Of a stretch of DNA of 64,000 nucleotides, positions 4,370 to 34,820 are shown piece by piece (position 1 is the first letter of the stretch; each line of letters opens with the position of its first letter). Location: NCBI GenBank assembly GCA_041737385.1, contig JBGSRU010000007.1, positions 5,552-69,551 of the forward strand, in the 5' to 3' direction. The position numbers were made by a program, and so were the translations under genes. Under the pieces are notes generated by a model. That model ran no database searches, was not told the DNA's origin, and was given only the letters and a program-made list of their open reading frames with translations. The DNA is from Candidatus Saccharimonadales bacterium. GTDB lineage: Bacteria; Patescibacteriota; Saccharimonadia; Saccharimonadales; SZUA-47.

Positions 4370-4446
4370 TGGTGAACCCGGCAGGATTTGAACCTGCGAC
4401 CTCTTGTACCGCAAACAAACGCTCTATCCAGCTGAGCTACGGGTCC
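4370..4446 (-). tRNA. tRNA-Arg (anticodon GCG), CCA encoded
   Basis: Reverse complement folds as GGACCCG-TA-GCTC..GAGC-G-TTTGT-TTGCGGT-ACAAG-AGGTC-GCAGG-TTCAAAT-CCTGC-CGGGTTC-A-CCA. Confidence 0.85.
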
Positions 4447-5679: not shown

Positions 5680-8232
5680 CTAGTCGGGTTTACTGAATCT
5701 TGTAATCTCTGTTGTCATGTTTTCAATTTGGGTAGTAATCTCCGCAAGTTGCGCTTTCGTTTCGTCTATAAGTTTTTTAGGAGCTTTACTCGTGTAATTT
5801 TTGTTGCTCAGCCGTTTCTGAAGCCCCTCAGCACGTTTTACAACCTCATCACGACTCTTAGCTAGTTTCTGCGCATATCGCTCAGCACGTTCGCGGTCAA
5901 TGTCTAGCCAGCAACGATGCGAAGTGCTGACAAGGTGCAACCCCTTCCCGTCTTCAACTTGGTGAACGCCGTCTATCCGAGCAAGTTGTGAAATAAGCTT
6001 TGCGTGCTCTTGCAAGAACGTCACACCCTTATGGTAAAGGGACGTTTTGTCCAGCTGCATCGCTGAAACAATAGTTCTGGTTTCTACGACAATATTCTTG
6101 ATCTCTTCGAACTCAGTTGCTTTTTTGACGTCGTGCTTCATTATTGATGGCCACTTTTGGGATACCAATAGTGAATCGCCAGTTATGTCTAGTGTTTGCC
6201 AGATGGTTTCCGTCACGAATGGCGCAAACGGATGTGCGAGCTTCAGCACAGACTCTAGCGCATACAGGAGTAAATCGGGGTTAAGCTCTTGTTTGCTTGC
6301 TTCAATATACCAATCAGCAAAATCATCCCACACAAAGTGGTAGAGGGTTTCATACGCTTCACTCATCCGATATTCATCTAAGTGAGAGGAAATAACAGAT
6401 ATAGTATGTTGTAATTTATTCAACATCCAATGATCAGCAGGAGTGACAGGACTCGCCTTTGCTGAATCAGGGCTTTTCTCTTCGAGCATACCTTCAACAA
6501 ATCGTGCGATATTCCATATTTTGTTACAGAAATTTCGTGCAGCAAGTGATTTTGCTGGTGCATAAGCTGAGCTATCGCCCGCGCTTCTTCCAGAAATCAT
6601 CCCCATCCGTAGCGCATCAGATCCAAATTCTTCAATGACGGTGTGTGGGCTTATGACATTTCCTAGCGACTTGCTCATCTTTCGACCATCTTCTGAGCGG
6701 ACCATTCCATGCAAATATATATCCTTGAACGGCACATCACCGGTTATATACAACCCAAGACAAATCATACGCGCACCCCACTGGTAGAGGATGTCTGTGC
6801 CCATTTCCATAAGTGTATTAGGATAGAAATCTTTGAAGTCTTTTCCGTCAGGGAAATCTAGAGTTATAAATGGCCATTGACCACTTGAGAACCACGTATC
6901 AAAAACATCAGGATCTCTTCGGTAGTTTTTACCGTCACGCTCAATCACTTCTTCGGAAACCTGCTCATCAAATATCCAATCATCAGGATCATCGACATTT
7001 TGAAATGCTGGTATTGGGATTCCCCAAGCAATTTGTCTACTTATGTTCCAGTCACGAACGTTTTCAAGGTATGTGATCGTTTGTTCTTTTTTACTTGATG
7101 GATAAAAGGTGATTTTGTTGTCTTTTATGGCTTTTATTGCAGGGCCTGCCAGTTTCTTCATATCAACAAACCACTGTTCGAGAAGCATCGGCTCAATCAC
7201 AGTGCCACATTTGTAGCATGTCCCTACCCTGTTTTGATAGGTCTCGTCGACTTTTGTGAGTAGCCCCTTTTCTTTTAGTGCCGCTACCACTGCCGTGCGT
7301 GCCTCGAGCACAGTCATTCCTTCGAACTGACCGGCTCGGTGGTTCATCGTTCCATCATGGTTGATAACTCTTATTGCTTCGAGGTTATGTCGCTTAGCAA
7401 CTTCCCAGTCATTTTGGTCGTGGGCAGGTGTTATTTTAACGACACCAGTACCAAATGTTTTGTCTACCATGTCATCGGCCAGCACTCTGATCTCGAATGG
7501 TCCGTTTATACCTTCAACTTCTATCACCTTGCCGACGTATTCGCTATAACGCTCATCGTCAGGGTGTACTGCAATGGCCGTATCGCCGAACTTTGTTTCT
7601 GGGCGGGTTGTCGCAAGCTCAAATGGGCCATATTTGAGGTAATACAGCGGGGTGGTCCTGTCGACATGAGCGACTTCAATATCTGCGAATCCAGTTCGGT
7701 GTTCGGTGCAGTAGTTTACGAGTCTTTCACCTCTGTAAATAAGCCCATCGTCCCACATTTTTTTAAAAGTGTTGTAGGCGGTTTTGACGACTTTATCTTC
7801 GAGAGTAAACGTAAACCTACTCCAATCAACACTTGCGCCAAATGAGCGAAGCTGTGACTCAAATACTCCTCGATTATTTTCTACGAATTCCCAAATCTGT
7901 TCATATAACTCTTCTCTGCTGAAATCAAATCGACTTTTACCCTCTTTTGCTAGGTGTTTTTCGTAAACAACCTGTGTTTCGAAGCCTGCATGATCAGCAC
8001 CAGGCAGAAACAGTACATTCTTACCCACTGCCCTGTTATAACGAGCCAGAATATCCATTATTGAGTAGTTTAGCGAATGACCAATATGCAGTGGTGCATT
8101 TGCATTTGGCGGTGGCATTACCATGACAAATGGTACGCCCTTCCCTGTTGGCGCAAAGGCTTCGCTTTTCTCCCAAAGTGCGTAAATATCAGCTTCGTAA
8201 GCGTTTGGTTCGTAGTTTTTGGGTAATTTCAT
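5680..8232 (-). CDS. valS: Valine--tRNA ligase
   Basis: 850 aa. HIGH-type motif PLHIGH, KMSKS motif, editing-domain sequence, C-terminal coiled coil. Confidence 0.95.
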   Translation of the reverse strand: MKLPKNYEPNAYEADIYALWEKSEAFAPTGKGVPFVMVMPPPNANAPLHIGHSLNYSIMDILARYNRAVGKNVLFLPGADHAGFETQVVYEKHLAKEGKSRFDFSREELYEQIWEFVENNRGVFESQLRSFGASVDWSRFTFTLEDKVVKTAYNTFKKMWDDGLIYRGERLVNYCTEHRTGFADIEVAHVDRTTPLYYLKYGPFELATTRPETKFGDTAIAVHPDDERYSEYVGKVIEVEGINGPFEIRVLADDMVDKTFGTGVVKITPAHDQNDWEVAKRHNLEAIRVINHDGTMNHRAGQFEGMTVLEARTAVVAALKEKGLLTKVDETYQNRVGTCYKCGTVIEPMLLEQWFVDMKKLAGPAIKAIKDNKITFYPSSKKEQTITYLENVRDWNISRQIAWGIPIPAFQNVDDPDDWIFDEQVSEEVIERDGKNYRRDPDVFDTWFSSGQWPFITLDFPDGKDFKDFYPNTLMEMGTDILYQWGARMICLGLYITGDVPFKDIYLHGMVRSEDGRKMSKSLGNVISPHTVIEEFGSDALRMGMISGRSAGDSSAYAPAKSLAARNFCNKIWNIARFVEGMLEEKSPDSAKASPVTPADHWMLNKLQHTISVISSHLDEYRMSEAYETLYHFVWDDFADWYIEASKQELNPDLLLYALESVLKLAHPFAPFVTETIWQTLDITGDSLLVSQKWPSIMKHDVKKATEFEEIKNIVVETRTIVSAMQLDKTSLYHKGVTFLQEHAKLISQLARIDGVHQVEDGKGLHLVSTSHRCWLDIDRERAERYAQKLAKSRDEVVKRAEGLQKRLSNKNYTSKAPKKLIDETKAQLAEITTQIENMTTEITRFSKPD

Positions 8233-22151: not shown

Positions 22152-23198
22152 ATGTTAGATGATTTGAAGTATATAAACCAAAAAGATACATATGACGCAC
22201 TAGGTGTTGTCAGTAAACAGTGGGAGCAACTGCTTCAGAAATACACCCTGCCAAAAATAGAAAACAAGTTTGAAAATATTGTTCACGCAGGTATGGGTGG
22301 TTCCGCGCTGTGGGCGATAGTTGCTCAGAGTTGGCCAGGATTTACGATTCCGTTTGAGATTACAAAAGATTACGATATTCCGTTCTATGTGAACGAAAAA
22401 ACGCTTTTTATTGCAGCTAGCGTCTCTGGAAACACCGAGGAAACGCTATCGTCGTTAGCTCAAGCTGAGGCGAAAGGTGCATTTATCGTAGTAATCGCTG
22501 CTGGAGGTAAGCTTGCGGATATCGCTAGAGAAAAAGGGTATCCATTTATTGAGCTACCTGAAGTCCGACCCCCTCGTTATGGAATGTTTAATGGTCTAAA
22601 GGGTCTGACTATTTTGGGCGAACAGCTAGGATTACTTCAACAAGAAAATGCCATCTCTGAGATTGAATCTGCTGCTGAATTTGTAAAAACTGTAATGCAA
22701 GGATGGGCTGCTGATGTGCCTGAGTCAAAAAACCTTGCTAAACAATTGGCGCATGAGTGTGCAGGTAAATCTATTGTGATTTATAGCGGTCCAATGCTTG
22801 CTCCAGCCGCACATAAATGGAAGATTGGTTTTAATGAGAATGCAAAAAATGTTGCTTGGGAATATACTTTTCCTGAGTTTAATCATAATGAATTTACCGG
22901 CTGGACGTCTCATCCTATAGAGAAACCTTATCAAATTTTCTACTTACTTTCATCTTTTGATAACGACCGAGTCAAAACCCGCTTTGACTTGAGCGAAAAA
23001 CTTTTAAGTGGACGCTGGCCTTCGCCAACAAGGCTTGAAATTAAAGGCAAAACAAAGCTAGAACAGCTGCTGTGGGCGATATCGCTTGGTGATTTTGTCA
23101 GCGTGTACACAGCACTTCTAAACGGAACTAGCCCAATTGACATGGGCAACGATGACATAATTGAAAAGTTCAAAACGGAGTTAGGTCATCCTGTATGA
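22152..23198 (+). CDS. Bifunctional phosphoglucose/phosphomannose isomerase (SIS-domain, archaeal-type PGI/PMI)
   Basis: GMGGSALWA and SVSGNTEETL SIS motifs. Start moved to ATG 22152 after GGAGAG. Confidence 0.8.
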   Translation: MLDDLKYINQKDTYDALGVVSKQWEQLLQKYTLPKIENKFENIVHAGMGGSALWAIVAQSWPGFTIPFEITKDYDIPFYVNEKTLFIAASVSGNTEETLSSLAQAEAKGAFIVVIAAGGKLADIAREKGYPFIELPEVRPPRYGMFNGLKGLTILGEQLGLLQQENAISEIESAAEFVKTVMQGWAADVPESKNLAKQLAHECAGKSIVIYSGPMLAPAAHKWKIGFNENAKNVAWEYTFPEFNHNEFTGWTSHPIEKPYQIFYLLSSFDNDRVKTRFDLSEKLLSGRWPSPTRLEIKGKTKLEQLLWAISLGDFVSVYTALLNGTSPIDMGNDDIIEKFKTELGHPV

Positions 23199-23635
23199 GT
23201 GACAAGGCACCAATTTTTGACCCAAGCGGATTTAGCAATGATTCCTATGTAAAACGAGTTGAAAAACCATGGGGTTATGAGTTGCACTTTGTCCGTGAAG
23301 GCTTGCCATACATGACAAAGCTTGAACATATAAATAAAGGTCATCGTCAAAGTATGCAAATTCATGACACAAAAGAAGAAACTTTCATCTTAATAAAGGG
23401 CCGAGGCGGAGTTATTTGGGAAAACAACAAGGGTGAACTAATAACAACAGAGTTTGAGCCATTTAAGGGATATACAATACCCATCGGTCAGAAACATCGT
23501 CTGATCTCTATAACGGATTGTGACATCATTGAAGGTTCAACGCCAGAGGCAGGAACAACATGGAGACTTGAAGACGACTATGCACGTCCAGATGAAACAC
23601 CTTCGCAACGCAAGAAAGAACGCGGTGAAGAATAG
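23195..23635 (+). CDS. Cupin-domain protein (mannose-6-phosphate-isomerase type II C-terminal-like)
   Basis: KPWGYE...QSMQIH...H cupin motifs. ATGA-type overlap with the upstream isomerase. Confidence 0.65.
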   Translation: MSDKAPIFDPSGFSNDSYVKRVEKPWGYELHFVREGLPYMTKLEHINKGHRQSMQIHDTKEETFILIKGRGGVIWENNKGELITTEFEPFKGYTIPIGQKHRLISITDCDIIEGSTPEAGTTWRLEDDYARPDETPSQRKKERGEE

Positions 23636-23684
23636 CACTATATGGCTCATGGTTATCTAACGTCTAAGTGAGATAATATAATTT

Positions 23685-24620
23685 ATGAGTGAAACAATTG
23701 AATTTGGTGTTGAGCTAGGCCTGACGCCTATTAAATCGACAATGAGAATGCAGCCTGATGCGCTGGTTTTCGATGATAACGGAATGTTTGGTGATAGAGA
23801 ATTAATGTTCGTCGAGGCTGAGGGCAAACATGTTGGTCAGTTTATCTCGCTGAGAGCTGATGGAGTTATGGCGCTTGTAGAATCTGTCATTACTGATGAT
23901 AGAGCGCTTCTCGACCATCCTGATGCTGGTTTAGAAATAGTTCCTAGACTGATAGAAACTGACGAAAATAGAATAGATGTTTCAGTACACAAATGGCACG
24001 GTGTGGGAGTTGACCAAGGGAATCAAGCAGCTGAATGGGGTAGAGCGGTTTTTGGTAGAGCTGTAAGACTTGTACGAGTGAGCGAAGAAAAACCCCGTTT
24101 TGTAGAGGACAACCAAAGACTTGGAAGAGTTGGGTTTTCAGACGGCTATCCACTGCTTGTCGTTAGTTAGGGTTCGGTCAATGCAATCAGTGATTTTATA
24201 GTTGAACAAGGCGCTGACCCTATAGAAGCGAGAAACTTTGGACCAAATATTCTTCTCGACAGCGATACACCGTTTATCGAAGACTATATAAAGTCAATTA
24301 CATTTGAATCAGAGGGTTTGCTGTGGGAGCTAATTAGAAGAAAAGCTTGCGGACGATGTGTCATGCCAAGTAGGCGCCCAGAAGACGGTGAGATGAGAAA
24401 AGGTATTACAGTTCTAGGAGCGTTGGCCGAGATGGGACGTAAGGGAACTCACGTTAATATTACTGACTTTGGAATTAGGCCTGAGCGATTTTTCGGTCAG
24501 AACTTCATAGTTAGACCACCGCAAGATTTACCTCCTAGACGAACTGGCATATTGCATGCTTCAACTCAGGTAACTGCACACATAAACGACAGCACAAACT
24601 GGGAGCCTGTTGCTGCCTAG
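23685..24620 (+). pseudogene. MOSC-domain protein interrupted by a single in-frame TAG (24168-24170)
   Basis: ORFs 23685-24170 and 24318-24620 are in the same frame. Translation between them continues as GSVNAISDF...RNFGPNILLD...CGRCVMP, a MOSC-like sequence with the conserved Cys. Confidence 0.6.
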
Positions 24621-24760
24621 AAACTGTCGACGAAGTTTTCGCTGTATTGGTTTCTGGTCCAGATGATAAAACCGATAGCGAAGATAAGTAGCAGTAGCAG
24701 GATAATTGTTCTTTGTCGTTCGCTCACCCGCCAGCTCAACAGGTTTCTCAGGTGTTTCAT
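24617..24760 (-). CDS. Candidate 47-aa single-TM protein translationally coupled to the sortase
   Basis: MKHLRNLLSWRVSERQRTIILLLLLIFAIGFIIWTRNQYSENFVDSF. Its ATG overlaps the sortase TGA (ATGA). Confidence 0.45.
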   Translation of the reverse strand: MKHLRNLLSWRVSERQRTIILLLLLIFAIGFIIWTRNQYSENFVDSF

Positions 24761-25368
24761 ATAATTTCTCCGCGTTCGTTCACCGGTTTTGCTATCAGGA
24801 CGAGTCGGTTTTTAGCGGTCCAAATCGGGTCACAGGTGTAGATAGTAAGTTGCTTTTCCGTTGTTGGTGCCTCTATATCGACGGCTGATGCATCGACTAC
24901 TTTAACTTCGACTACTTCATACACTATCTCTTCACCCTCCCAGTATATTGCGAGTTTTTTGCCTTTTAGTACTTTGTCTAGGTGATAAAACGTCGAGACA
25001 TTATTACCAAAATAACGGTGTCCGACAACCACTGAGTTGCCGTTTTCATTTGGAGCAGCTGTTTGTGGTCGTCGCCATGTGCCGCCGTCATTTATAACGC
25101 CGATTGAGCTACCTTCTTCGATTGGTTCATTTACTTGTATCGATGGTATGACAATTCGGTTATCGTTGGGTTTTTCAGTTGCAGTGCTAGAACCCTCAGA
25201 GTCAGCCAAGCTGCCGACATATGGCGCCGAAGCTTCAGCCGATTTATCGCGGAAGATAAAGCTAAGCTGTGGCAAAAACGGCGACAGGGCAATATACAGC
25301 CCAAGTGCAATCACGACTACAGAGAGGAAATTATTAAAACGTCTCAAATTCATGTACACAAGTATCAA
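24757..25368 (-). CDS. Sortase (transpeptidase)
   Basis: N-terminal TM anchor. VVGHRYF catalytic His, LTIYTCDP (TLxTC-type Cys), and a downstream R. Confidence 0.85.
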   Translation of the reverse strand: MILVYMNLRRFNNFLSVVVIALGLYIALSPFLPQLSFIFRDKSAEASAPYVGSLADSEGSSTATEKPNDNRIVIPSIQVNEPIEEGSSIGVINDGGTWRRPQTAAPNENGNSVVVGHRYFGNNVSTFYHLDKVLKGKKLAIYWEGEEIVYEVVEVKVVDASAVDIEAPTTEKQLTIYTCDPIWTAKNRLVLIAKPVNERGEII

Positions 25369-25392
25369 GTATCATAGTGAAGATATCAATAG

Positions 25393-26610
25393 TTAAGCAT
25401 CAGTTCGCAGTGAAGTAATCGGATCCTTACTTGCCGCTTTAGCTGCGGGTAGTAATCCAGAGACGATACCAGTTGCTATCGATAGTCCCCCAACAAGCAA
25501 AACGACATTTAGTGTGGTGACTGGCTGTAAGTCGGTCGTTAGTCGTATGACAGCATTTGCCAAGAACGCTATCGCGATACCGATGACACCGCCGACGACG
25601 CTCAAGACGACAGACTCCATGATAAATTGACCAAGTATTTGGGAGTAAGTTGCGCCAATTGCTTTTCTGATACCGATTTCTCTTGTGCGCTCACTAACGG
25701 TTGCGAACATGATATTCATAATGCCAATACCACCAACAATGAACGAGATGAATGCGACACCAGCAATGAACAGGGTTATTTGGTAGAAGACTTCATTGGT
25801 TGCTTCTAGGGCTTCTTCTTTTTCGAGTATGGTGAAATCTTCTTGACCAGCATGGTTTGCTTTGAGGGTTTCACGGACGCTTTTTGAAACAGTTGATACG
25901 TCTTCTGGAGAAGCTGCCTCAACATAAATCTGCATGAGCTGAATCGATCCACCGACACCGCGTGCTGCCTCGAACGGCAAGAACACAGAGTTATTAACGT
26001 TTAAAGCAGCAAAAGAACCAGATTTTTGTTGTTCGAAAATACCTTGGACGATGAAGCTTTTACCTCTAATTGTGAGTGATTTACCGACAGGAACGTTTTC
26101 TTTGAATAGTTTTTCAGCGACGTCTTTCCCGATAACTGCAATGTTTCGTGCATAATCTTTTTCAGTGAAAAACTCTCCAAATTCGACTTTTTGGTTAAGT
26201 AGCTCAGGTAATCTCTCGGTTGTTGCGACGATATTACCTCCGGCGTATTCGTCGGTTTCATAGCTCACTATCCCGCTCAATATACCGACGGGCACGGCTG
26301 AACTAACTCCTTCGACTTTCTCAGTATCACGCCAATCTTTCTCACTAAGTGAGCCGGTACTGCTAACAAACGAACGAAGTGCGTCAAGGCTAAAAGCTCT
26401 GGCTTCTGTTTGTTTGCCCGGTCGTACAACAATTAAAGCGTCTGAAACAGTATCAACTTGCGAGGAGACTTGTTGTTTAACTCCTTCACCAAGTCCAACA
26501 ATCGTGACCACAGAACTAACGCCGATGATAATCCCAAACATAGTTAGCGCGCTTCTGAACTTCGCACCTCGAATTGAGGTAAGTGCCATTTTGAAATATT
26601 CGTTAATCAT
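25393..26610 (-). CDS. ABC transporter permease, MacB/FtsX family
   Basis: 405 aa. N-terminal TM, large periplasmic-type domain, C-terminal FtsX 3-TM module (REIGIRKAIGA). Confidence 0.9.
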   Translation of the reverse strand: MINEYFKMALTSIRGAKFRSALTMFGIIIGVSSVVTIVGLGEGVKQQVSSQVDTVSDALIVVRPGKQTEARAFSLDALRSFVSSTGSLSEKDWRDTEKVEGVSSAVPVGILSGIVSYETDEYAGGNIVATTERLPELLNQKVEFGEFFTEKDYARNIAVIGKDVAEKLFKENVPVGKSLTIRGKSFIVQGIFEQQKSGSFAALNVNNSVFLPFEAARGVGGSIQLMQIYVEAASPEDVSTVSKSVRETLKANHAGQEDFTILEKEEALEATNEVFYQITLFIAGVAFISFIVGGIGIMNIMFATVSERTREIGIRKAIGATYSQILGQFIMESVVLSVVGGVIGIAIAFLANAVIRLTTDLQPVTTLNVVLLVGGLSIATGIVSGLLPAAKAASKDPITSLRTDA

Positions 26611-26615
26611 GGCGG

Positions 26616-27470
26616 TTATTTTTTACCTTTCTTTTTTTTGCTTTTGCGGCGCTTTTTTTTGCTTTTCTCTGGAGAAGCTGAATCTGGCATAGTCTCAATC
26701 ATGGCGCTGACGTTGGCGAGTTTTTCGTCGTCGTCAGATTTGCGTAGCGCACTGATAGCCTTCTGAACTCGACTTGGAACTTCCCCGACAGCGCTGGCTT
26801 CATCGTAGACGATACTACCGTCAAGCATATAAATAATTCGGTCTGCATAGCGAGTCAAGGAAGGGTTGTGAGTAACCATAATAACGGTATTACCAAGTTT
26901 ATGGACTTCGCTCAATAGCTCCATAACAACGCGGGCACTAACACTGTCTAGGTTGCCTGTTGGTTCGTCCGCGATGATAATACTCGGTCCGTTGACGAGT
27001 GCACGGGCTATAGCCGCACGTTGCAATTGACCACCAGATAGCTGTGTAGGGTAGTAATATTCGCGGTCTCTTAAGCCTACTTGCTCTAGCGCCTGCCCAG
27101 CTGCTTTGAGCCGGCGAGTTTGTGATACTCTTTTATAAAACAGGGGTAGAGCAACGTTTTCTAAGACCGTAAGTCGCGGAAGAAGGTTGAAAGATTGGAA
27201 AATAAACCCAATATTGTCTCGACGAGTTTTAGCTTGTCTTATTTTAGTGAGACGAGCAACGTTTCTGTCGTTTAATTTATAGATGCCGTGAGTTGGTCGA
27301 TCAAGAAGACCGAGTATATTCATGAGTGTTGTTTTACCAGAACCACTTGGGCCCATGACCGCAATAAACTCGCCTCGCTTCACTTCTAAACTGACTTCGT
27401 CGAGTGCGACAGTTGTCGCGTCTCCGAAACCATATACTTTGGACAATTCTTCAATTTTTATGAGTGACAT
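26616..27470 (-). CDS. ABC transporter ATP-binding protein (MacB/LolD-like) with a Lys-rich C-terminal tail
   Basis: Walker A GPSGSGKTT, signature LSGGQLQR, Walker B IIIADEPT. Tail KSKKKRRKSKKKKGKK. Confidence 0.92.
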   Translation of the reverse strand: MSLIKIEELSKVYGFGDATTVALDEVSLEVKRGEFIAVMGPSGSGKTTLMNILGLLDRPTHGIYKLNDRNVARLTKIRQAKTRRDNIGFIFQSFNLLPRLTVLENVALPLFYKRVSQTRRLKAAGQALEQVGLRDREYYYPTQLSGGQLQRAAIARALVNGPSIIIADEPTGNLDSVSARVVMELLSEVHKLGNTVIMVTHNPSLTRYADRIIYMLDGSIVYDEASAVGEVPSRVQKAISALRKSDDDEKLANVSAMIETMPDSASPEKSKKKRRKSKKKKGKK

Positions 27471-27585
27471 TAGTCTCTATTCTAATCTGTTAGAAGGGGT
27501 AACACAAGCATAAGAACGAAACTTATCTAAAGTTTAAGTCCAAAAGTGTAATAGTATATACATTTTGCTAGAATGACTATAGTAT

Positions 27586-27675
27586 GGAGAGGTGTCCGAG
27601 TGGCTTAAGGAGCACGCTTGGAAAGCGTGTAGGTCAGCAATGGTCTCGCAGGTTCGAATCCTGTTCTCTCCGCCA
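27586..27675 (+). tRNA. tRNA-Ser (anticodon GGA), CCA encoded
   Basis: GGAGAGG acceptor, anticodon stem CACGC/GCGTG with loop TTGGAAA, long variable arm, T-arm GCAGG-TTCGAAT-CCTGT. Confidence 0.9.
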
Positions 27676-27814
27676 GGAGAAGAACGGCCAGCATAAGCTG
27701 GTCTTTTTCTTTTAAGAAACAAAGGATTCGATCCGAAAAGGTTCGCTAAATAGTCTTATCACCCTGAAAGGGCTGATAGATTATTTAGGTCTCCTCATCC
27801 TGTTCTCTCCGCCA
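27676..27814 (+). repeat. tRNA-Ser(GGA) 3'-end cassette
   Basis: ATCCTGTTCTCTCCGCCA (27658-27675) repeats perfectly at 27797-27814. Terminator GGCCAGC-ATAA-GCTGGTC plus T-run. Inverted decayed copy at 27714-27734. Direct GGTTCG at 27740-27745 followed by a hairpin insert at 27752-27783. Confidence 0.85.
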
Positions 27815-27818
27815 AGTA

Positions 27819-27847
27819 TTGACTTTTATAATCATAAGTAGTATAAT
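27819..27847 (+). promoter_or_regulatory. Sigma-70 promoter giving a leaderless or near-leaderless mRNA for ORF 27857
   Basis: TTGACT-17 nt-TATAAT. The ATG lies 9 nt after the -10 element. Confidence 0.6.
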
Positions 27848-27856
27848 ATATTAATT

Positions 27857-28423
27857 ATGCTCAAATACACTCTACCGGATGTGCATATAGCGCAATCTTA
27901 TGATGAAATGATAGCTTTTAATGGTATTTCAACTTTTACAAGCCCCGAAATCGCAGAAGAGTTAATCGCTCAAGGTGATGGTCGTTACGACAGAGTAAAC
28001 TACGTTCTGCAAAATAGAGGTAGGTTCTTTACTGGTTTACCGGGTAAGAACGCTCGTACATTTGGGACAAGAGATATCGGCTTAAGTGAAGCTTCTCAAC
28101 TACATATCGATCCTGAGGGTAGAGGAGTAGCTCTTTGTGCAATGGGTGAGATGGCCGCAAAGCTTACTCAGCTTGATCTATCAGATGAACCGATAGAGCA
28201 TATTCCTTTTGATATTATGAATATCAACCAAGTTAGGTACGTACAATTAAAAGCAAGAATTGTTGATAATCCACCTTCTGACAGTGATGTATTATCTTTA
28301 ACCGCTCCAGTCGGAACATATATTGCGTTCAACGGTGGTCTTAAATGTGATCCAGCAAAGTTGAACCCTCATGGATTTTCAAGTTCAATATCTCCTAGAG
28401 CTAGTGTTTCTAGCTATCTTTAA
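27857..28423 (+). CDS. Orphan hypothetical protein (188 aa)
   Basis: ORF only. Lies between two tRNA-Ser genes. Confidence 0.45.
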   Translation: MLKYTLPDVHIAQSYDEMIAFNGISTFTSPEIAEELIAQGDGRYDRVNYVLQNRGRFFTGLPGKNARTFGTRDIGLSEASQLHIDPEGRGVALCAMGEMAAKLTQLDLSDEPIEHIPFDIMNINQVRYVQLKARIVDNPPSDSDVLSLTAPVGTYIAFNGGLKCDPAKLNPHGFSSSISPRASVSSYL

Positions 28424-28854
28424 TTTGTGGAGTTTAACAACAGTTTAATTTTATGTTCTTCTTTCGGGGTTACTGATCTACGACCGTCAAAACATTTCAT
28501 AAAAAGATATTCATCACCTTTATCATTTAGCGTATATAGCCAATCATATGCATACTTTTTCGTTTTTTTAATAACATATCCTTGAGAATTAGAATGAATT
28601 CTTCTAAGTTCAACTAACTTGCCTGAAAAGAATCTCACTTGAACTTTTTTTAATTTTCCTTCGTAATCAACCACAATATCGTAGGCTGCTGATTCTGTTA
28701 TTGGTAAAGAAACATCATACCCAGCTTTAGTAAAAGTGGCTATTGCTTGTGTGACTGCATAATCACCTTTGTGCTGAGTAGTTCTCATACACTCATAGTA
28801 CGGTATAGCATACCGTTCTTGCAAATATAATCTGTTATTGTTATAATTTGGCAA
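28420..28854 (-). CDS. PD-(D/E)xK-type nuclease-like protein (start possibly at 28788)
   Basis: GDYAVTQAIATFTKAGYDVSLPITESAAYDIVVDYEGKLKKVQVR fits the E...D...(E/Q)xK pattern of small stand-alone or intron-associated PD-(D/E)xK endonucleases. Confidence 0.5.
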   Translation of the reverse strand: MPNYNNNRLYLQERYAIPYYECMRTTQHKGDYAVTQAIATFTKAGYDVSLPITESAAYDIVVDYEGKLKKVQVRFFSGKLVELRRIHSNSQGYVIKKTKKYAYDWLYTLNDKGDEYLFMKCFDGRRSVTPKEEHKIKLLLNSTN

Positions 28855-28859
28855 GTTCT

Positions 28860-28949
28860 GGAGAGGTGTCCGAGTGGTTTAAGGAAATAGTCTTGAAAAC
28901 TATCGAGCCCGCAAGGGTTCCGAGGGTTCGAATCCCTCCCTCTCCGCCA
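28860..28949 (+). tRNA. tRNA-Ser (anticodon UGA), CCA encoded
   Basis: GGAGAGG acceptor, anticodon stem ATAGT/ACTAT with loop CTTGAAA, long variable arm, T-arm GAGGG-TTCGAAT-CCCTC. Confidence 0.9.
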
Positions 28950-29240
28950 ATAAAATAACCCCCACATGCAAAACATGTGAGGGTTTATTTTTTGGGAGAG
29001 CACAGAGACAACTTCTTGTCTCTGTGGGGATTCGAACAGCTTAAGCCTTGTTCCGCCCAATGTGCGGAACGGCGCGCCGAGCTCACGAGCATATTGCAGA
29101 GCAATATGACTTGGGAGGTGGAAATCCCTCCCTCTCTGCCAGAGAGAATCGCCTGGGTCTTTTTACGCAGGCGTTTTTCTTTTGCTAAAGAAAAAGGATT
29201 CGAATCACAGGTTCATGAGGTAAAGCATCCCTCCCTCTCC
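28950..29240 (+). repeat. Two stacked tRNA-Ser(UGA) 3'-end cassettes
   Basis: AATCCCTCCCTCTCCGCCA (28931-28949) recurs at 29123-29141 (18/19), and as ATCCCTCCCTCTCC at 29227-29240. Inverted decayed copies at 28993-29036 and 29183-29206. Terminator hairpins after each CCA. Confidence 0.8.
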
Positions 29241-29274
29241 TTGAATATAAAATAACTACTGTACAATAGCGTTT

Positions 29275-29589
29275 ATGGTAATGCACAAAAAACACCATCA
29301 CATATACACGAGAGCGCTAAAATCATTTGATCAAATGACGACATTCGAGAAAATAGTAACTACAGTCGGATCTATAGAGCCAATAACTTCAATTCCTCAG
29401 GTTACTCTTGTTTATTCTTTAAAGTCCGCAGAAGAACTATCTTTATTTAGCTGGGCTTTTGGAATTTTTGGGACTGTATTATGGCTCATATATGCAATAA
29501 AGAAAAAGAGCTGGCCACTGATAGTATCTAGCTTATTATGGTTGCTCATATATATTCCTATAGTTGTAGCTATAGTCCTCTACGGCTAA
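29275..29589 (+). CDS. PQ-loop / SemiSWEET-like 3-TM membrane protein
   Basis: About 100 aa with three hydrophobic helices and a PQ motif (SIPQVTLVY) in the first. Confidence 0.5.
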   Translation: MVMHKKHHHIYTRALKSFDQMTTFEKIVTTVGSIEPITSIPQVTLVYSLKSAEELSLFSWAFGIFGTVLWLIYAIKKKSWPLIVSSLLWLLIYIPIVVAIVLYG

Positions 29590-29655
29590 TCTATCTAATT
29601 TACTTTGAATCCACTAAGCACGTTGCGTATACTTGAAACATAAAGAGGAGATAGT

Positions 29656-30573
29656 ATGGGTTTTTTAGCTGTAGTTATAGTAGTTCTAGTTTTAGTAGCT
29701 CTCACGGGGTTATTTACAGTAACGCAGCAGACCTCTGCGATAATTGAGAGATTTGGTAAATTCAAGCGAATTGCGGGCGCAGGCTTGAACTTCAAGATTC
29801 CACTCATAGACAGAGTCGCTGGTCGGCTTTCACTCCGCGTACGACAACTCGATGTACGGGTTGAGACAAAGACGAAAGATAATGTGTTCGTGTTTGTGAT
29901 TGTTAGCGTGCAGTATTTTGTTATTCCAGAAAAAGTTATTGATGCGTTTTATAAATTGCAGAACGCAGAAGCGCAGATTACTAGTTATGTATATGATGTC
30001 GTTCGAGCGAGAGTGCCAAACGTTATATTGGATCAGGTGTTCGAGACGAAAGATGACATCGCTCAGGCGGTAAAAGTCGAGCTAGAGCAAATTATGGATG
30101 ATTTTGGGTATGGGATTCTGAAAGCATTGGTAACGGACATTGATCCAGATGCAAAAGTAAAAGAAAGTATGAATGAGATAAACGCCGCTCAAAGATTGCG
30201 TGTTGCCGCCGTTGAGCAAGCCGAAGCCGATAAAATCCGTGTTGTCAAAGCCGCAGAAGCTGAAGCAGAGAGTAAAGCACTGCAGGGTAAAGGTATCGCT
30301 GACCAGAGAACCGCTATCGTTAACGGACTAAAAGAAAGCGTCACAGAGTTCCAAAACGACGTCGACGGTACAAGTGCTCAGGATGTAATGAACCTAGTGC
30401 TCATGACACAGTATTTTGACACCCTAAAAGATGTGGGGCTCAGTTCAAACAGCAACACAATCATGATCCCGCACAGTCCATCTGGAATGAACGATATTTC
30501 TGAACAACTTCGTAACGCGATGATTACTGCCAACGAAGTCAGTAAAAAATCTGGCCACAGGCCAACGGCTTAA
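29656..30573 (+). CDS. SPFH/band-7 (stomatin/prohibitin-like) membrane protein
   Basis: N-terminal TM, SPFH core (IIERFGKF...LDVRVETKTKDNV), Ala/Glu-rich coiled coil. Confidence 0.88.
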   Translation: MGFLAVVIVVLVLVALTGLFTVTQQTSAIIERFGKFKRIAGAGLNFKIPLIDRVAGRLSLRVRQLDVRVETKTKDNVFVFVIVSVQYFVIPEKVIDAFYKLQNAEAQITSYVYDVVRARVPNVILDQVFETKDDIAQAVKVELEQIMDDFGYGILKALVTDIDPDAKVKESMNEINAAQRLRVAAVEQAEADKIRVVKAAEAEAESKALQGKGIADQRTAIVNGLKESVTEFQNDVDGTSAQDVMNLVLMTQYFDTLKDVGLSSNSNTIMIPHSPSGMNDISEQLRNAMITANEVSKKSGHRPTA

Positions 30574-30581
30574 ATCTAAGA

Positions 30582-31151
30582 ATGCAAAAAAGTAGATGTG
30601 AATGGGTGGGGGATGACCCTATCTATATTCAGTATCACGATACTGAGTGGGGAGTACCGGTTCACGACGATACAAAACAGTTTGAGTTTCTGACACTTGA
30701 GAGCGCACAAGCGGGACTGAGCTGGGTCACTATACTAAAACGTCGAGAAGGCTACAGGCGAATATTCAAAGATTTTAACCCTCACGCTGTTGCAGAAATG
30801 ACCGAGTCAGAAATTCAGGTTGCCCTTCAAGATACTGGCATCATTCGAAACAAGTTAAAAGTGCGAGCAGCCGTAAAAAATGCACAGGTATTTCTAGAGT
30901 TACAGGCTGAGTTTGGTAGTTTTAGTAAGTATATCTGGGGGTTTGTGGACGGCAAGACGGTGCAGAACAGCTTGAAAGAGCTAAACGCTGTACCAGCAAC
31001 ATCGGTCGAGTCAGATAGCTTAAGCAAAGATCTCAAAAAACGAGGTATGAGCTTTGTTGGATCGACAATTATATATGCACACATGCAAGCAACTGGCTTA
31101 GTGAATGACCACACAACTGATTGCTTCAGGTACAATATAAGTTATGAATGA
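30582..31151 (+). CDS. tag: DNA-3-methyladenine glycosylase I
   Basis: CEW...YHDTEWGVPVHDD...FEFLTLE signature. 189 aa. Confidence 0.9.
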   Translation: MQKSRCEWVGDDPIYIQYHDTEWGVPVHDDTKQFEFLTLESAQAGLSWVTILKRREGYRRIFKDFNPHAVAEMTESEIQVALQDTGIIRNKLKVRAAVKNAQVFLELQAEFGSFSKYIWGFVDGKTVQNSLKELNAVPATSVESDSLSKDLKKRGMSFVGSTIIYAHMQATGLVNDHTTDCFRYNISYE

Positions 31152-31785
31152 TAGATTTACGGTAATATTTGATTTCGATGGAACGCTGGGTGATACAATC
31201 GAGCTCGTATCGCGTATTTATAACGAAAATGCTCATTTATATGGTGCTTTACCAGTAAGTAAAGATGAGTTCCCGGAACTCCGAAAACTCGGCTATAAAA
31301 AGGCCATGAAAGCAAAAAAAATCCGTTGGTCTGTTCTCCCAAAACTTGTGCTATTTGTGAGCCGAGAAATGAAACAGCATATGGGAGAAGTGAAACCATA
31401 TCCGGGGGTAGTGTCGATGCTTAAAGAACTACAAGCATCCGGAATTTCTATCGGAGTATTGACGTCTAACGATGGAGCTTTGGTGCAAGACTTCTTGAAC
31501 AGTAACAATTTCCCTGTATTTGACTTTGTGGTGAGCGAGAAAACGATGTTCGGTAAAGAAAAAGCACTAAAGCGTATTATGAAGCGGCATAAACTAATCA
31601 AAGAAAAAGTCATCTATGTCGGTGATGAGTCGCGGGATGTCGTTGCCTGCAAAAAAGCCGGTATAAAAATAATCGGGGTGACATGGGGCGCTGGTGGCAA
31701 AGAGTCGTTTATTGCAACGCCGCCAGATAGACAAGTTGATACAGCTGGTGAGCTAAAAGCAGCCATCATTGAAGCAAGACAGTAG
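31144..31785 (+). CDS. HAD-superfamily hydrolase (phosphoglycolate-phosphatase/PpaX-like)
   Basis: FDFDGTLGDT, LTSN, VGDESRDV motifs. Confidence 0.8.
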   Translation: MNDRFTVIFDFDGTLGDTIELVSRIYNENAHLYGALPVSKDEFPELRKLGYKKAMKAKKIRWSVLPKLVLFVSREMKQHMGEVKPYPGVVSMLKELQASGISIGVLTSNDGALVQDFLNSNNFPVFDFVVSEKTMFGKEKALKRIMKRHKLIKEKVIYVGDESRDVVACKKAGIKIIGVTWGAGGKESFIATPPDRQVDTAGELKAAIIEARQ

Positions 31786-31791
31786 TAGCGG

Positions 31792-32241
31792 TTATGGGTG
31801 GTGGTAAGGATGGCCAGTATGGATGCTGTAAGCTCGGTATAGCTGTTCAGCGATAATAATACGAACAAGTTGGTGCGGATAGACAAGCTTTCCTAGAGAC
31901 CAGACGAGTTTTGCTTCTTTTCTGACAGTTTCATCCACTCCGTAAGCTCCACCAATAATAAAAGTGATATCGTGCCCTTTATCAAACACCTCATTTGCAA
32001 GTTGTGGTGAGCTTAGTTGCGTGCCATTCTCGTCGAGTAATATGACTCGACTCTTTGGTGCTATCGCTCTCAGGATTAACTCAGCTTCATGCTTTTTACT
32101 TAGAGCTGGTGTTCCTTGACCATGTTTTATATAGTGCCAATCTACGTGAACATGGGAAGGAAGCCGTTTTACAAAGTCGTTCATGAGTGACGAAGTTTCT
32201 TGTTTTGGTCGAGTACCAACTGACAGGATTCGTAGGTTCAT
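31792..32241 (-). CDS. rlmH: 23S rRNA (pseudouridine1915-N3)-methyltransferase (SPOUT)
   Basis: 149 aa. FIIGGAYG and the C-terminal PHQLVRIIIAEQLYRAYSI..GHPYHH signature. Confidence 0.88.
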   Translation of the reverse strand: MNLRILSVGTRPKQETSSLMNDFVKRLPSHVHVDWHYIKHGQGTPALSKKHEAELILRAIAPKSRVILLDENGTQLSSPQLANEVFDKGHDITFIIGGAYGVDETVRKEAKLVWSLGKLVYPHQLVRIIIAEQLYRAYSIHTGHPYHHP

Positions 32242-32275
32242 CAGTATATTATAACAGATACAGATGTTGTAGAAA

Positions 32276-32302
32276 TTAGCACTCTCGTATGGCTATTGCT
32301 AA
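32276..32302 (+). promoter_or_regulatory. CIRCE-like inverted repeat
   Basis: TTAGCACTC-N9-TATTGCTAA: left half 9/9, right half 7/9 against the consensus. Confidence 0.45.
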
Positions 32303-32373
32303 TCAAAACAATGTCATGTATCATGAATTAACGACCAACCATATACATAGGTTAAACAACAAGGAGGGAATAT

Positions 32374-32814
32374 ATGTATTCAGCAGCAGTTAACGCCCAC
32401 ATTCGAGAATTGATTGAACAAGTTATGGAGTATAGAGATCAAGGACAATGGGGTAAATTAGAACAATTATTTACCGAAACTCCATACATCGACGAAAGCG
32501 TATTCACTAAAGAAGCACCCGGCAAAAAAGCCGCATCGAGTGTTCTTTATGGATGGCGACGTATGATTCGTGATCTGTATTACAGCGCACGACACAAACT
32601 TGGTGCAATGGATATCGAACGAACAGGCAAAAAAGAAGTCGCAGCAACAAGTGAAATTGAAGCGCGATACTACACGCTAAAAGACGGTGAACGATATGTG
32701 CATAAAATGAACGGTAGCTACGAATATAATTTTCGTAAAGTAGCTGGTCGTTGGAAGATTGACAGCTTAAAGCTTAAAATCAACAAACAGTCATTTGAAC
32801 CAATTGGTTCGTAA
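32374..32814 (+). CDS. SnoaL/NTF2-like fold protein
   Basis: 146 aa. Strong AAGGAGGGA RBS. C-terminal GRWKIDSLKL is typical of NTF2-like proteins. Weak family call. Confidence 0.5.
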   Translation: MYSAAVNAHIRELIEQVMEYRDQGQWGKLEQLFTETPYIDESVFTKEAPGKKAASSVLYGWRRMIRDLYYSARHKLGAMDIERTGKKEVAATSEIEARYYTLKDGERYVHKMNGSYEYNFRKVAGRWKIDSLKLKINKQSFEPIGS

Positions 32815-32864
32815 AGTACCACGCAAAGTTTAAGCATAAGCTCTAGCTATGCGATAATGCATGC

Positions 32865-33545
32865 ATGAATGTTTTGTTTGTCTATGCGCACGAAGATCCA
32901 AAGTCTTTTGGTGCAGCTATGCATAACCGTGCGCTGAGTTATTTTGAGCGCGGAGGACACACGACCATCGTGTCTGATTTATATGGCTCAGGCTTTCATG
33001 CGGTTGCGGCTAAATGGGATTTTAAGGTCTCAGGTGGTGCTCACCAAAATTATATGCTTGAACAGAACCGTGCGGCATCTGAAGAAGAGTTTAGCGCCTT
33101 CGCTGAGGATATTAAGTCTGAGATAGCTAAGGTCCGCGCAGCAGATTTGCTACTTATTGAGTTCCCACTATGGTGGAGCGCTCCACCAGCTATTTTAAAG
33201 GGTTGGTTCGATAAAGTCTTCGCAATGGGAGTGACGTGGGATGGAAATCATAGGTACGAGAGCGGATTATTACGGGGTAAAAAGGTTCTCGTTGTTGCTG
33301 GCGCTGGCGATCCAGAAAGTTACTATACAGCAGAAGGCCTACACGGCGCGACGGTAACGCAACATTTGTATCCCTTGCTCCATAGTACTTTAGCGCACGC
33401 TGGACTTGACGTTGTTACTCCTTTCATAGCAGCTGGGTTAACTTCAGCCAATGACGAAGATAGACAGAATTTATTAGAAGACGTCGAGAGACATCTTGAA
33501 AAAGTCGTGTCATCACCTGAATTTATTTATAAACACTCAAAGTAG
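32865..33545 (+). CDS. Flavodoxin-like-fold NAD(P)H dehydrogenase (quinone) family protein
   Basis: MNVLFVYAHEDPKSF... and FPLWWSAPPAILKGWFDKVF are typical of the NQO1/MdaB-type Flavodoxin_2 family. Confidence 0.8.
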   Translation: MNVLFVYAHEDPKSFGAAMHNRALSYFERGGHTTIVSDLYGSGFHAVAAKWDFKVSGGAHQNYMLEQNRAASEEEFSAFAEDIKSEIAKVRAADLLLIEFPLWWSAPPAILKGWFDKVFAMGVTWDGNHRYESGLLRGKKVLVVAGAGDPESYYTAEGLHGATVTQHLYPLLHSTLAHAGLDVVTPFIAAGLTSANDEDRQNLLEDVERHLEKVVSSPEFIYKHSK

Positions 33546-33551
33546 AACCAT

Positions 33552-34106
33552 CTAGTATGGTTTTTCTTGCAAGCGAAGCAGCCACGCGAGTATGTTGAAC
33601 GTCGGATGAAGCACCAAAGCAATTATCACTCCAAGCAGGTATTTATCGAGTGGCAAACTAAGAAATGGCAGCGATGTTAGCATGCCTCCTATAACAAAAT
33701 CTAACTGATCAAATGGTACCCAACTTTTACCTGGAGCTATCCCTATTTGCCGTTTAAAAAAGCTTTCAACAGCGTCTCCTGCAACCGCGCCAAATCCCAT
33801 ACTCATGCCCATAACAATAACAATCGCTGAGCGATAGTCTACGAACAGAGAATAGGTATCAAACAAAGAATAATTCCGGGCAAGTAGTAGTTGTATCGCT
33901 CCGACAATTCCTCCCATAACGATGCCCGCTAATATGCCCCTAATTGTTTTGTGCTCGCCGAATATACGCTTTCCACGAAATGTTTTATTGAAATCAAGTG
34001 GCTGATTATAGCGAGTAATATAGGGTAGGTTATTGGCGATGACTGGCGCCATGTTTGCCACTCCGAGCGGGAGGAATAACCAAAGTAATGTTAAGACATC
34101 TTGCAC
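33552..34106 (-). CDS. CDP-archaeol-synthase-like (CarS / DUF46 family) membrane cytidylyltransferase
   Basis: LFLPLGVANMAPVI...PLDFNKTFRGKRIFGEHKTIRG...GAVAGDAVESFFKRQIG...DQLDF parallels the conserved blocks of archaeal CarS. Confidence 0.65.
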   Translation of the reverse strand: MQDVLTLLWLFLPLGVANMAPVIANNLPYITRYNQPLDFNKTFRGKRIFGEHKTIRGILAGIVMGGIVGAIQLLLARNYSLFDTYSLFVDYRSAIVIVMGMSMGFGAVAGDAVESFFKRQIGIAPGKSWVPFDQLDFVIGGMLTSLPFLSLPLDKYLLGVIIALVLHPTFNILAWLLRLQEKPY

Positions 34107-34112
34107 CTTAGA

Positions 34113-34820
34113 TTACGGCCTTTGTATTAGTTTTTTAAAGCGATTAAGTTTCGGAGCTAGCATATCAGCAAGTGTAGGTCGCGTATAAATCTTACGCGCA
34201 GTACGAGCAAGGCTAATTAGTTGCTGTTTATCAGGAATTTCGTTGAGTATACTGTATGTTTTACCAAGCGCTTTCGCGTGGTGTGCATCACTACTAGCGA
34301 GGACTGGTACACTCTGTACGCGCGCCCATGTATGCGCTTCTGGACCTCGGTTTTGAAAATATGCACGTCCGTTTGCACTTTCAACTATGTCTATTTGGTC
34401 TCTTATTCGATCTAGCGAAATACGCGAAACGCCGCTCCTTACAGTTTCAAAAGGGTGAGGGATGTAGACAATAGCATCTTGGGCCTTAATATCTTTTATC
34501 GTCGATTCTAGAGACCGGTTTGGTTCTACTCGTCTAGTGAGGAACAAACCAATAACTTCGCCGTCTAAGGTCATTATCTCTTCGCCAACAATTACTTTAT
34601 CCGGTCCAAGTTTTTCTTGAAGTGATTGTGCGAAATCGATGCGATTATGATCAGTAACTGCGACACAATCAAGCTGGCCATTGTTAAGCACCTCTTCATA
34701 TTGTTGTGCAGTTATAGAACCGTCGGGTGAAGCTATTGAGTGAGTGTGTAAGTCTACTTTGTACAAATCAGCTATATCATTTCTTTTTTGTATTACTTTT
34801 CGCTGTATAATCTTCAGCAC
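34113..34820 (-). CDS. PHP-domain phosphoesterase
   Basis: VDLHTHS..SPDG, AVTDHN, HPF, SDAH metal-ligand motifs. Confidence 0.8.
   Translation of the reverse strand: MLKIIQRKVIQKRNDIADLYKVDLHTHSIASPDGSITAQQYEEVLNNGQLDCVAVTDHNRIDFAQSLQEKLGPDKVIVGEEIMTLDGEVIGLFLTRRVEPNRSLESTIKDIKAQDAIVYIPHPFETVRSGVSRISLDRIRDQIDIVESANGRAYFQNRGPEAHTWARVQSVPVLASSDAHHAKALGKTYSILNEIPDKQQLISLARTARKIYTRPTLADMLAPKLNRFKKLIQRP

Follow-up and report, generated by a model that had tools for sequence, protein, structure and literature searches.

A gene-less 121-nt cassette set between two exact copies of a tRNA 3' end behind tRNA-Ser(GGA) of a Saccharibacteria genome

The gene for tRNA-Ser(GGA) in a Saccharibacteria (TM7) genome (Candidatus Saccharimonadales bacterium, contig JBGSRU010000007.1) is followed, at a spacing of 139 nt, by an exact second copy of its own last 18 nt, and the 121-nt interior that these two copies enclose holds no open reading frame (ORF). 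"The window" below is the whole stretch of this contig that was analysed, 64,000 nt; the MacB-type permease beside the locus is 62-78% identical to that of the closest species representatives. The reading developed here is that the 18-nt repeat is an att-type duplication bounding a gene-less cassette that is moved by a recombinase encoded elsewhere, and we consider this proposal evenly poised between right and wrong. The site-specific insertion footprint in tRNA genes is known; the miniature, integrase-less, structure-conserved form is new. The original prediction, which was made from the sequence alone, placed a perfect 3'-end repeat at 27658-27675 and 27797-27814 and regarded 27586-27814 as a single cassette locus. 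The repeat is indeed exact at both places, and the cassette is discrete, single and bounded by the tRNA 3'-end repeat. Its parts, in order, are these:

27586 to 27675, plus strand: intact tRNA-Ser(GGA) gene (ARAGORN; Rfam RF00005, 50.5 bits)
27658 to 27675, plus strand: tail copy 1, ATCCTGTTCTCTCCGCCA, tRNA positions 59-76; left copy of the candidate att-type repeat (exact 18-mer match)
27676 to 27713, plus strand: intrinsic terminator, made up of an A-rich arm GGAGAAGAAC (27676-27685), a stem-loop (27686-27703) and a T-run (terminator scan; consensus fold)
27714 to 27734, plus strand: inverted decayed tRNA 3' end, AAGAAACAAAGGATTCGATCC, the reverse complement of the T-arm and part of the acceptor strand (local alignment)
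27739 to 27745, plus strand: direct partial T-arm, AGG (T-stem 5' strand) and TTCG (sequence)
27746 to 27788, plus strand: structure-conserved hairpin of 43 nt (alignment A1, described below)
27789 to 27796, plus strand: 8-nt linker GTCTCCTC from hairpin to junction, kept as GTCTTCTC in the related locus L332
27797 to 27814, plus strand: tail copy 2, the displaced tRNA 3' end, exact; right copy of the repeat
27815 to 27856, plus strand: putatively the old tRNA-downstream DNA, including the promoter (27819-27847) of ORF 27857-28423; context outside the cassette

The repeat starts at tRNA position 59, directly past the T-loop TTCGA, and ends with CCA. The pattern ATCCTGTTCTCTCCGCCA, with up to three mismatches allowed, has four matches in the window against 0.04 expected from shuffles, and the two that lie elsewhere are the tails of tRNA-Ser(GCU). 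Sublocations of att sites within tRNA genes were reportedly set out by Williams in 2002. Islander keeps a separate category for the "T-stem region attP site" (PMC4383910). The attP copies of tRNA-Ser found on phage contigs read ...GA|ATCC...CCA, with a left boundary (positions 57-59) and a CCA end equal to those of the cassette. Since its boundaries equal these phage attP copies and the Islander class, the repeat is best read as an att-type duplication that arose through site-specific recombination at the tRNA 3' end.

Filled, empty and variable sites can be compared in relatives. tRNA-Ser(GGA) adjoins the ABC transporter, its upstream neighbour in the window, in about 30 Saccharibacteria loci. 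At the empty sites, L333 (88% identity in the ABC ATPase) and L336-L343 (85%), tRNA-Ser(GGA) is followed by a spacer of 40-42 nt, which holds the promoter of tRNA-Ser(UGA), and then by tRNA-Ser(UGA) itself. The filled site L332 (87% identity) has, between the same two tRNAs, a homologous 127-nt cassette, an exact tail and a 46-nt spacer with the UGA promoter. At L001 a matching cassette is followed by a further unit of 3.4 kb containing one ORF of 1029 amino acids (ORF1029) without a Pfam match; this unit ends in a module like that of the cassette (terminator, inverted T-arm, GGTTCG and hairpin) and then in an exact third GGA tail 47 nt before tRNA-Ser(UGA). Strains also differ: contigs that agree completely in the ABC protein fall into two haplotypes, with and without a 208-nt unit (cassette plus tail) downstream of tRNA-Ser(UGA), and this indel (L336 versus L337) is bounded by the 13-nt repeat AATCCCTCCCTCT. 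Presence and absence with boundaries at the repeat is the behavior of a tRNA-gene integrative island. Cassette and tail together behave as one unit of insertion or deletion with its boundaries within the tRNA tail.

The interval between tRNA-Ser(GGA) and tRNA-Ser(UGA) measures 40 nt, 191 nt, 1.2 kb (this window), 1.4-1.6 kb or 3.6 kb among relatives, and is therefore a hotspot. Loci L334 and L335, which encode an identical ABC protein, have intervals of 1611 and 1444 nt: genes for DUF1361 and NUDIX proteins are called in the interval of L334 only, and the interval of L335 starts nearly as that of L334 does. This 167-nt difference is more strain-level variation in the hotspot. Independent Logan contigs of the same organism (SRR28170464), L207, L208 and L209, correspond to window positions 22616-27675, 27646-28949 and 28922-34573; the breaks between them fall precisely on the 3' ends of the genes for tRNA-Ser(GGA) and tRNA-Ser(UGA), which points to graph branching at both tRNA ends. 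The cause of the branching could be heterogeneity of the population or tRNA segments held in common with related species.

How well is the cassette conserved? Compared among the window, L001 and L332, cassette plus tail is 84%, 74% and 69% identical across species; unrelated flanks aligned with the same settings give a baseline of approximately 57-62%, and four-fold degenerate sites of the adjacent ABC gene are saturated at 33-38% identity. Tail copies in relatives keep 17-18 of the 18 positions, and the internal motifs that had been predicted are also kept in L001, L332 and L297. The cassette thus appears to be maintained rather than decaying. Its hairpin is conserved more in structure than in sequence. 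In alignment A1, which consists of six hairpins from three tRNA-Ser isoacceptors and four sequence sources, and which confirms the proposed homology of 27746-27788 to the hairpins at the Ser-GCU locus, 92.5% of the cells are paired and 10 of the 18 pairs have compensatory changes; none of 500 shuffles reaches the observed pairing, controls slid out of register give 33-41%, and the L332 hairpin contributes further compensatory pairs. The invariant features are AGTC (27752-27755) opposite GATT (27779-27782), with a G.T pair among their pairs; CC facing GG; and a C at 27773 that bulges out of the stem. A covariance model of the hairpin finds matches (79-91 bits) at tRNA-Ser loci only. In its apical hairpin the L001 GGA cassette almost equals the GCU cassette of the window and is unlike the window's GGA cassette at the matching position, which implies exchange between loci.

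The hairpin loops are of a particular kind. Triloop hairpins are enriched (40 observed, 14.8 +/- 3.7 in shuffles); 24 of the 40 have a C-GNA-G closing, and not one GNRA or UUCG loop was seen. GNA triloops of the d(GCGAAGC) type are unusually stable in DNA, and the hairpin apex in L332 and L297 is exactly GCGAAGC. The invariant G.T pair lies on the tRNA-sense strand, which GC skew marks as the lagging-strand template. Taken as hints, the GNA triloops, the sense-strand G.T pair and the lagging-strand template favor folding of a DNA strand.

The stem-loop predicted to be a terminator was recovered at 27686-27703 by the terminator scan, followed by TTTTTCTTTT, and its consensus fold has G-U pairs and compensatory changes. 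It is also the center of a long decayed palindrome made by the tail and the inverted tail copy, a feature that had gone unnoticed. The inverted copy at 27714-27734, likewise predicted, matches the tRNA 3' end in reverse complement with a local alignment score of 22 (shuffle mean 14.1; equaled or exceeded by 4 of 500 shuffles), and the direct GGTTCG is present at 27740-27745 as described. AGG of this direct piece can pair with CCT (27799-27801) in tail copy 2, and the corresponding alignment columns 86/153 covary with the local tRNA, as A-U or as G-C. GGAGAAG does stand directly 3' of the first CCA, where it had been noted; its proposed role in an acceptor-like stem is another matter. Such pairing is possible, and RNAfold closes the cassette with it, but many cassettes lack the motif and its bases double as the A-tract arm of the terminator stem, so that the case for acceptor-like pairing is weak. 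Within the cassette ARAGORN detects no tRNA or tmRNA, and Rfam no family, either at the gathering score or with the threshold relaxed to E <= 10. Miniature inverted-repeat transposable elements, derivatives of DDE transposons, have terminal inverted repeats flanked by a target duplication of 2-10 bp; the two ends of the cassette are not inverted copies of one another, and its duplication measures 18 nt. A degenerate tandem tRNA duplicate was ruled out: the cassette cannot be aligned to the tRNA body, and the T-loop is split by the insert.

Similar cassettes lie behind three other tRNA genes of the window, which brings the total to at least eight cassettes behind four genes:

2372 to 2750, plus strand: three-unit array behind tRNA-Ser(GCU) (2279-2371), with tails at 2502-2519 (exact), 2683-2700 (one mismatch) and about 2731-2750 (decayed)
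28950 to 29244, plus strand: two-unit array behind tRNA-Ser(UGA) (28860-28949), with tails at 29124-29141 (one mismatch) and 29227-29244 (3' end truncated)
4181 to 4369, minus strand: one cassette behind tRNA-Arg(GCG) (4370-4446, minus strand), containing a terminator and the inverted T-arm GATTTGAATC; its tail, at 4181-4198, has two mismatches

Homology of the Ser-GGA cassette to those at the Ser-GCU and Ser-UGA loci, which had been proposed, is supported; the tRNA-Arg(GCG) cassette was not part of that proposal, and because of it the phenomenon is not confined to tRNA-Ser. The units share one build: first a terminator, then part of the local tRNA 3' end in inverted orientation, the T-stem 5' strand in direct orientation with TTCG, one or more hairpin inserts, and a tail. 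In the palindrome of the second GCU unit the mirror image expected is GGCTGTTCTTTCTTTTGGCGGAGAGAGAGGGATTCGAACC and that observed is GGCTGTTTTTTCTTTTGGTACGGGGAGTGAGAGATTCGAACC. Where the tRNA has a TTCAAAT T-loop, as tRNA-Arg(GCG) does, the inverted piece is ATTTGAA; varying as it does with the local T-loop, the inverted piece must derive from or track the local tRNA. Decay rises with distance from the tRNA in stacked arrays, and terminal tails often lack their last 4-6 nt. An ORF near the tRNA-Ser(GCU) array (182-619, plus strand) encodes a type IV secretion pilin-like protein (PF18895, E = 9.5e-14).

Metagenomes permit a glance at how widespread the arrangement is. A scan for two tRNA-Ser tails 115-145 nt apart returned 120 loci, 25 of them cases of tRNA, cassette and tail, on contigs with 35-69% GC; at 65 of the others two true tRNA-Ser genes stand in tandem, and a few are false positives, among which a CRISPR array (L217) and coding repeats (L225, L326) were set aside. 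Fifteen of the 25 metagenome cassettes have an identity block of exactly 19 nt (A58 to A76), the inverted copy is significant in 11 (1.25 expected by chance), and tandem copies are common. One cassette family occurs at both GCU and UGA isoacceptors, and there both the tail and the inverted piece (GGGGAT versus GGAGAT) match the local tRNA: tails equal the local tRNA in every genome, yet differ between genomes. Among 197 non-Ser tRNAs in the fetched loci just one, a tRNA-Leu, has a cassette, a ratio that is biased because the scan was built on Ser tails. On the metagenome contig L287 (3385-4142) a cassette lies behind tRNA-Leu(GAG), and the neighboring tRNA-Ser(CGA) is followed by two identical 118-nt cassettes in tandem; GCGAAG motifs abound in all three cassettes. 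The repeat of the L217 CRISPR array (6574-7706), GTTTCAATCCACTCTCCGCCACGCGGGCGGAGAGAAT, consists of a tRNA-Ser-like tail and then its own inverted complement, like the palindrome of a minimal cassette; this likeness is probably coincidence. On the viral contig L204 (12494-12900) a prophage end is followed by two direct-inverted-direct cassettes, and the phage arm has GGTTCG 34 nt upstream of its own T-arm/tail copy, which suggests that the right end of the cassette resembles a phage attP arm. No annotated relative of this prophage end was found. A scan with the L204 tail yielded nothing but serU prophages of enterobacteria, whose identity block is of the long classical kind that runs from the anticodon loop.

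How might such a unit move? The insertion target would be the T-loop-to-CCA segment of tRNA-Ser(GGA), and cassettes would be moved in trans by a recombinase with its gene elsewhere, one of the site-specific enzymes of the T-loop tRNA-gene class. The hairpin with its bulge, which stands 8 nt from the junction, and the T-arm pieces, inverted and direct, that pair with each other may be cis-acting arms and make up the recombination site together with the tail. By analogy with integron attC these arms probably work folded, as single strands, on the tRNA-sense strand, and this would explain the conservation of structure over sequence. On insertion the intact tRNA would gain the cassette's own terminator, while the old 3' end and the downstream DNA, including the promoter, would be shifted by 139 nt.

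Several points weigh against the proposal of a mobile cassette: 1) The 208-nt polymorphism may be a loss as well as a gain, since homologous deletion, too, can produce an indel with direct repeats at its bounds. 2) Neither an empty site nor a circle junction turned up in contigs of the source sample (exact-protein look-ups, one sample). 3) Pfam scans of neighboring ORFs (about 28 of the roughly 70 in the window, which is 64 kb of genome) found no recombinase near the tRNA loci; an integrase accounts for one of the 54 ORFs downstream of metagenome cassettes; and a hidden Markov model of the P4-type integrase, a narrow one, had no match when run on the window and about 40 Saccharibacteria loci. 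4) No homologue of the cassette was found in phage and viral collections by pattern scans or by BLAST against phage records; the pattern scans of viral contigs gave real tRNA-Ser genes, ordinary attP sites or chance matches only. 5) For double-strand attP x attB recombination of the classical kind, 140-210 bp would be a very small circle, and the classical model leaves unexplained both the inverted copy and the exact match of both tails to the local tRNA when one family sits at different isoacceptors. Small size, the lack of any gene and a selected, folded interior are indeed the departures from the known kind of element.

Could the cassette instead be a functional RNA, a structured 3' trailer co-transcribed with the tRNA or read through from it, and kept for a host function? 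Its tRNA-like T-arm/acceptor 3' end with GCCA would then recruit tRNA end-processing or CCA-adding enzymes. The compensatory changes in hairpin and terminator, the conserved unpaired stretches, the sense-strand G-U pairs and the conservation of same-position cassettes far past neutral expectation would all be accommodated, as would a fold (z = -4.67) that is closed by GGAGA(A)GAAC/GUUCUCUCC and leaves GCCA free; many high-GC cassettes, moreover, have no terminator between tRNA and cassette. In this genome, however, a strong terminator stands ahead of the structured part and no internal promoter is seen, the search of Rfam gave zero matches even at E <= 10, and GNA triloops take the place of the GNRA/UNCG loops usual in RNA. 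Precise presence/absence units, arrays and the identity of the tail with the local tRNA are left without explanation, and we regard a trailer RNA as unlikely. Distinctly unlikely is an inert scar: a phage or integrative element would once have occupied the tRNA gene, and after deletion of its interior its left and right ends would have been left to decay. The classical att signature, the decay of arrays with distance from the tRNA and the two cassettes after the L204 prophage end are what a scar would leave, and partial tRNAs are well described as remnants of degenerated elements (bioRxiv 10.1101/2020.12.28.424599). But a scar should not retain 69-84% identity across species whose synonymous sites are saturated, tails still matching at 17-18 of 18 positions, compensatory hairpin pairs, an architecture and a size that recur in about 30 independent loci, or an apical hairpin exchanged between different tRNA loci.

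A single-strand element of the HUH type, an IS200/IS605- or REPIN-like miniature inserted 3' of the T-loop TTCGA and served by a Y1 transposase encoded elsewhere, would fit the geometry of both subterminal hairpins to their junctions (on the left the tail, with a hairpin approximately 10-28 nt from the cut; on the right the bulged hairpin at approximately 8-12 nt). It would also fit the conserved irregularity of the hairpin (the bulged C), the DNA-type chemistry of the GNA loops, and the TTCG directly 5' of the right hairpin foot, which is complementary to the CGAA of the palindromic T-loop. Such families, however, make no target duplication and have end hairpins that are alike, whereas here there is a duplication and the terminator and right-end hairpins are unlike each other; a tail borne by the element would mismatch other isoacceptors, whereas tails always match locally; and no Y1 transposase is among the ORFs scanned with Pfam. 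This makes the explanation very unlikely. Highly improbable, finally, is a by-product of replication or repair, in which template switching or fold-back at the T-arm and terminator gave a direct-inverted-direct triplication of the tRNA end that was then amplified by unequal exchange. It would account for that order of pieces, for a terminator at the center of the first palindrome and for the identical tandem cassettes of L287. Fold-back predicts the same terminator with each tail and no foreign insert, but terminators differ, and a conserved hairpin family sits between TTCG and ATCC, the same family at different tRNAs and in different genomes; conservation and covariation, besides, point to selection. 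Two further candidates were ruled out: casposon- or CRISPR-like insertion, because the cassettes lack terminal inverted repeats and have homologous, structured interiors in place of random ones; and a TnpB-type guide RNA, because the guide would match the filled allele too.

The att-bounded cassette can be set beside systems already known. As in tRNA-gene islands and prophages, the tRNA is regenerated, its 3' fragment is displaced in direct orientation, the identity block runs from T-loop to 3' end, and the inserted DNA brings a new terminator. An interior of 121 nt without integrase or any gene, conservation of structure and an inverted copy of the tRNA end are where it differs. Of the traits by which Islander recognizes islands, the locus has an intact tRNA and a cognate 3' fragment in the same orientation, with a block from anticodon loop/T-loop to 3' end; it lacks an integrase inside the interval and a length of 2-200 kb (here 139 nt). 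Islander rejects candidates that are shorter than 2 kb or lack an integrase (PMC4383910), and this filter may be why no description of small hairpin-bearing cassettes at tRNA genes was found in the literature searched. Arrays of partial tRNAs formed by serial integration are on record for the tycheposon islands of Prochlorococcus (bioRxiv 10.1101/2020.12.28.424599) and for the ssrA islands of Dehalococcoides (PMC3146451). The likeness extends to several tails per tRNA, the newest next to the tRNA and older ones decayed outward, in a strain-variable hotspot; the units there are kilobase-sized elements or gene-bearing remnants, and here they are 60-190 nt long, with a shared fold and conservation across species.

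A further comparison is with integrons. ORF-less integron cassettes exist, and so do attC clusters without an integrase. As with attC, arrays form at one fixed site, and the end palindrome is imperfect, conserved in structure over sequence and provided with an extrahelical base (here the invariant bulged C); as in integrons, every junction has a short conserved sequence, cargo is optional (L001 ORF1029) and the folding strand is the lagging-strand template. The cassette lacks the attC core sites, R'' RYYYAAC and R' GTTRRRY, the invariants in alignment A1 being AGTC and GATT instead; there is no intI, attI or Pc promoter beside the array among the ORFs scanned; the junction repeat is an 18-19-nt tRNA tail; and the crossover is at the apical, not the basal, end of the paired region. 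The palindrome-associated miniature elements of IS200/IS605 and the REPINs are gene-less, about 100-200 nt long and defined by irregular DNA hairpins, as these cassettes are, and are moved in trans as single strands; unlike these cassettes they are dispersed in extragenic space, make no 18-nt duplication and are untied to tRNA 3' ends. One can go further and propose that tRNA 3' ends anchor arrays of small, mostly gene-less cassettes much as attI does; that each cassette ends in a folded single-strand site which, by inverted copy, direct copy and bulged hairpin, mimics the T-arm/acceptor helix of the local tRNA; that a recombinase encoded elsewhere inserts and excises the cassettes; and that such arrays are widespread from Saccharibacteria to high-GC bacteria and have been overlooked by island finders, which demand an integrase and more than 2 kb. 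Speculation on this scale is on shakier ground, and we hold it to be doubtful.

The promoter downstream of the cassette calls for separate comment. TTGACT-17-TATAAT (11 of 12 matches in the promoter scan) lies 4 nt past the repeat, where it had been predicted, and 9 nt before the ATG of ORF 27857. The original prediction went on to suggest that cassette ends supply or respect promoter positions, and this part fails. In L001 the same cassette is followed by DNA unrelated to the window's promoter and to ORF188 (ORF 27857-28423). In L332 the tail is followed by the tRNA-Ser(UGA) spacer, which directly follows the tRNA in empty-site relatives, and the UGA promoter is as far from the tail as it is from the tRNA at empty sites. 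The cassette therefore neither brings nor positions the promoter, and supply of a promoter by the cassette is ruled out. The promoter lies 4 nt after the repeat because the tail copy carries the original junction of tRNA and downstream DNA along; what lies past the last tail would thus be what followed the tRNA before insertion. A larger island taking in ORFs 27857-28854, with the repeat as its far end, was also considered. These ORFs lie outside the repeat pair, and at the same position in relatives the cassette is a self-contained unit, so that the larger island is not supported.

ORF188 (27857-28423, plus strand) has no Pfam match and was found only in the sample of its source organism; its mRNA is probably leaderless, to judge from a promoter only 9 nt before the ATG. 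It converges, with a 4-nt overlap, on an ORF at 28420-28854 (minus strand) of the PD-(D/E)XK family PF11645 (E = 5e-14), which abuts the tRNA-Ser(UGA) promoter. L334 and L335 have the same PD-(D/E)XK gene in the corresponding position, and L333 and L336-L343 lack it. The PF11645 family includes a homing endonuclease encoded in a tRNA intron, and the ORF may encode a nuclease of the homing type that stands free in the tRNA hotspot.

Integrative elements are, as a standard, recognized by displaced tRNA 3' fragments, and intervals that are short or lack an integrase are discarded by design. For annotation, these cassettes explain the tRNA-like fragments, terminators and seemingly "positioned" promoters that lie behind tRNA genes; tRNA loci that bear them may be where metagenome assemblies break, and they mark the spots of cargo entry between tRNA-Ser(GGA) and tRNA-Ser(UGA). 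If mini-cassettes are real and maintained, the census of site-specific insertions would have missed a whole size class, and gene-less elements or recombination sites would persist in reduced genomes, such as those of Saccharibacteria, that are seemingly almost free of mobile DNA.

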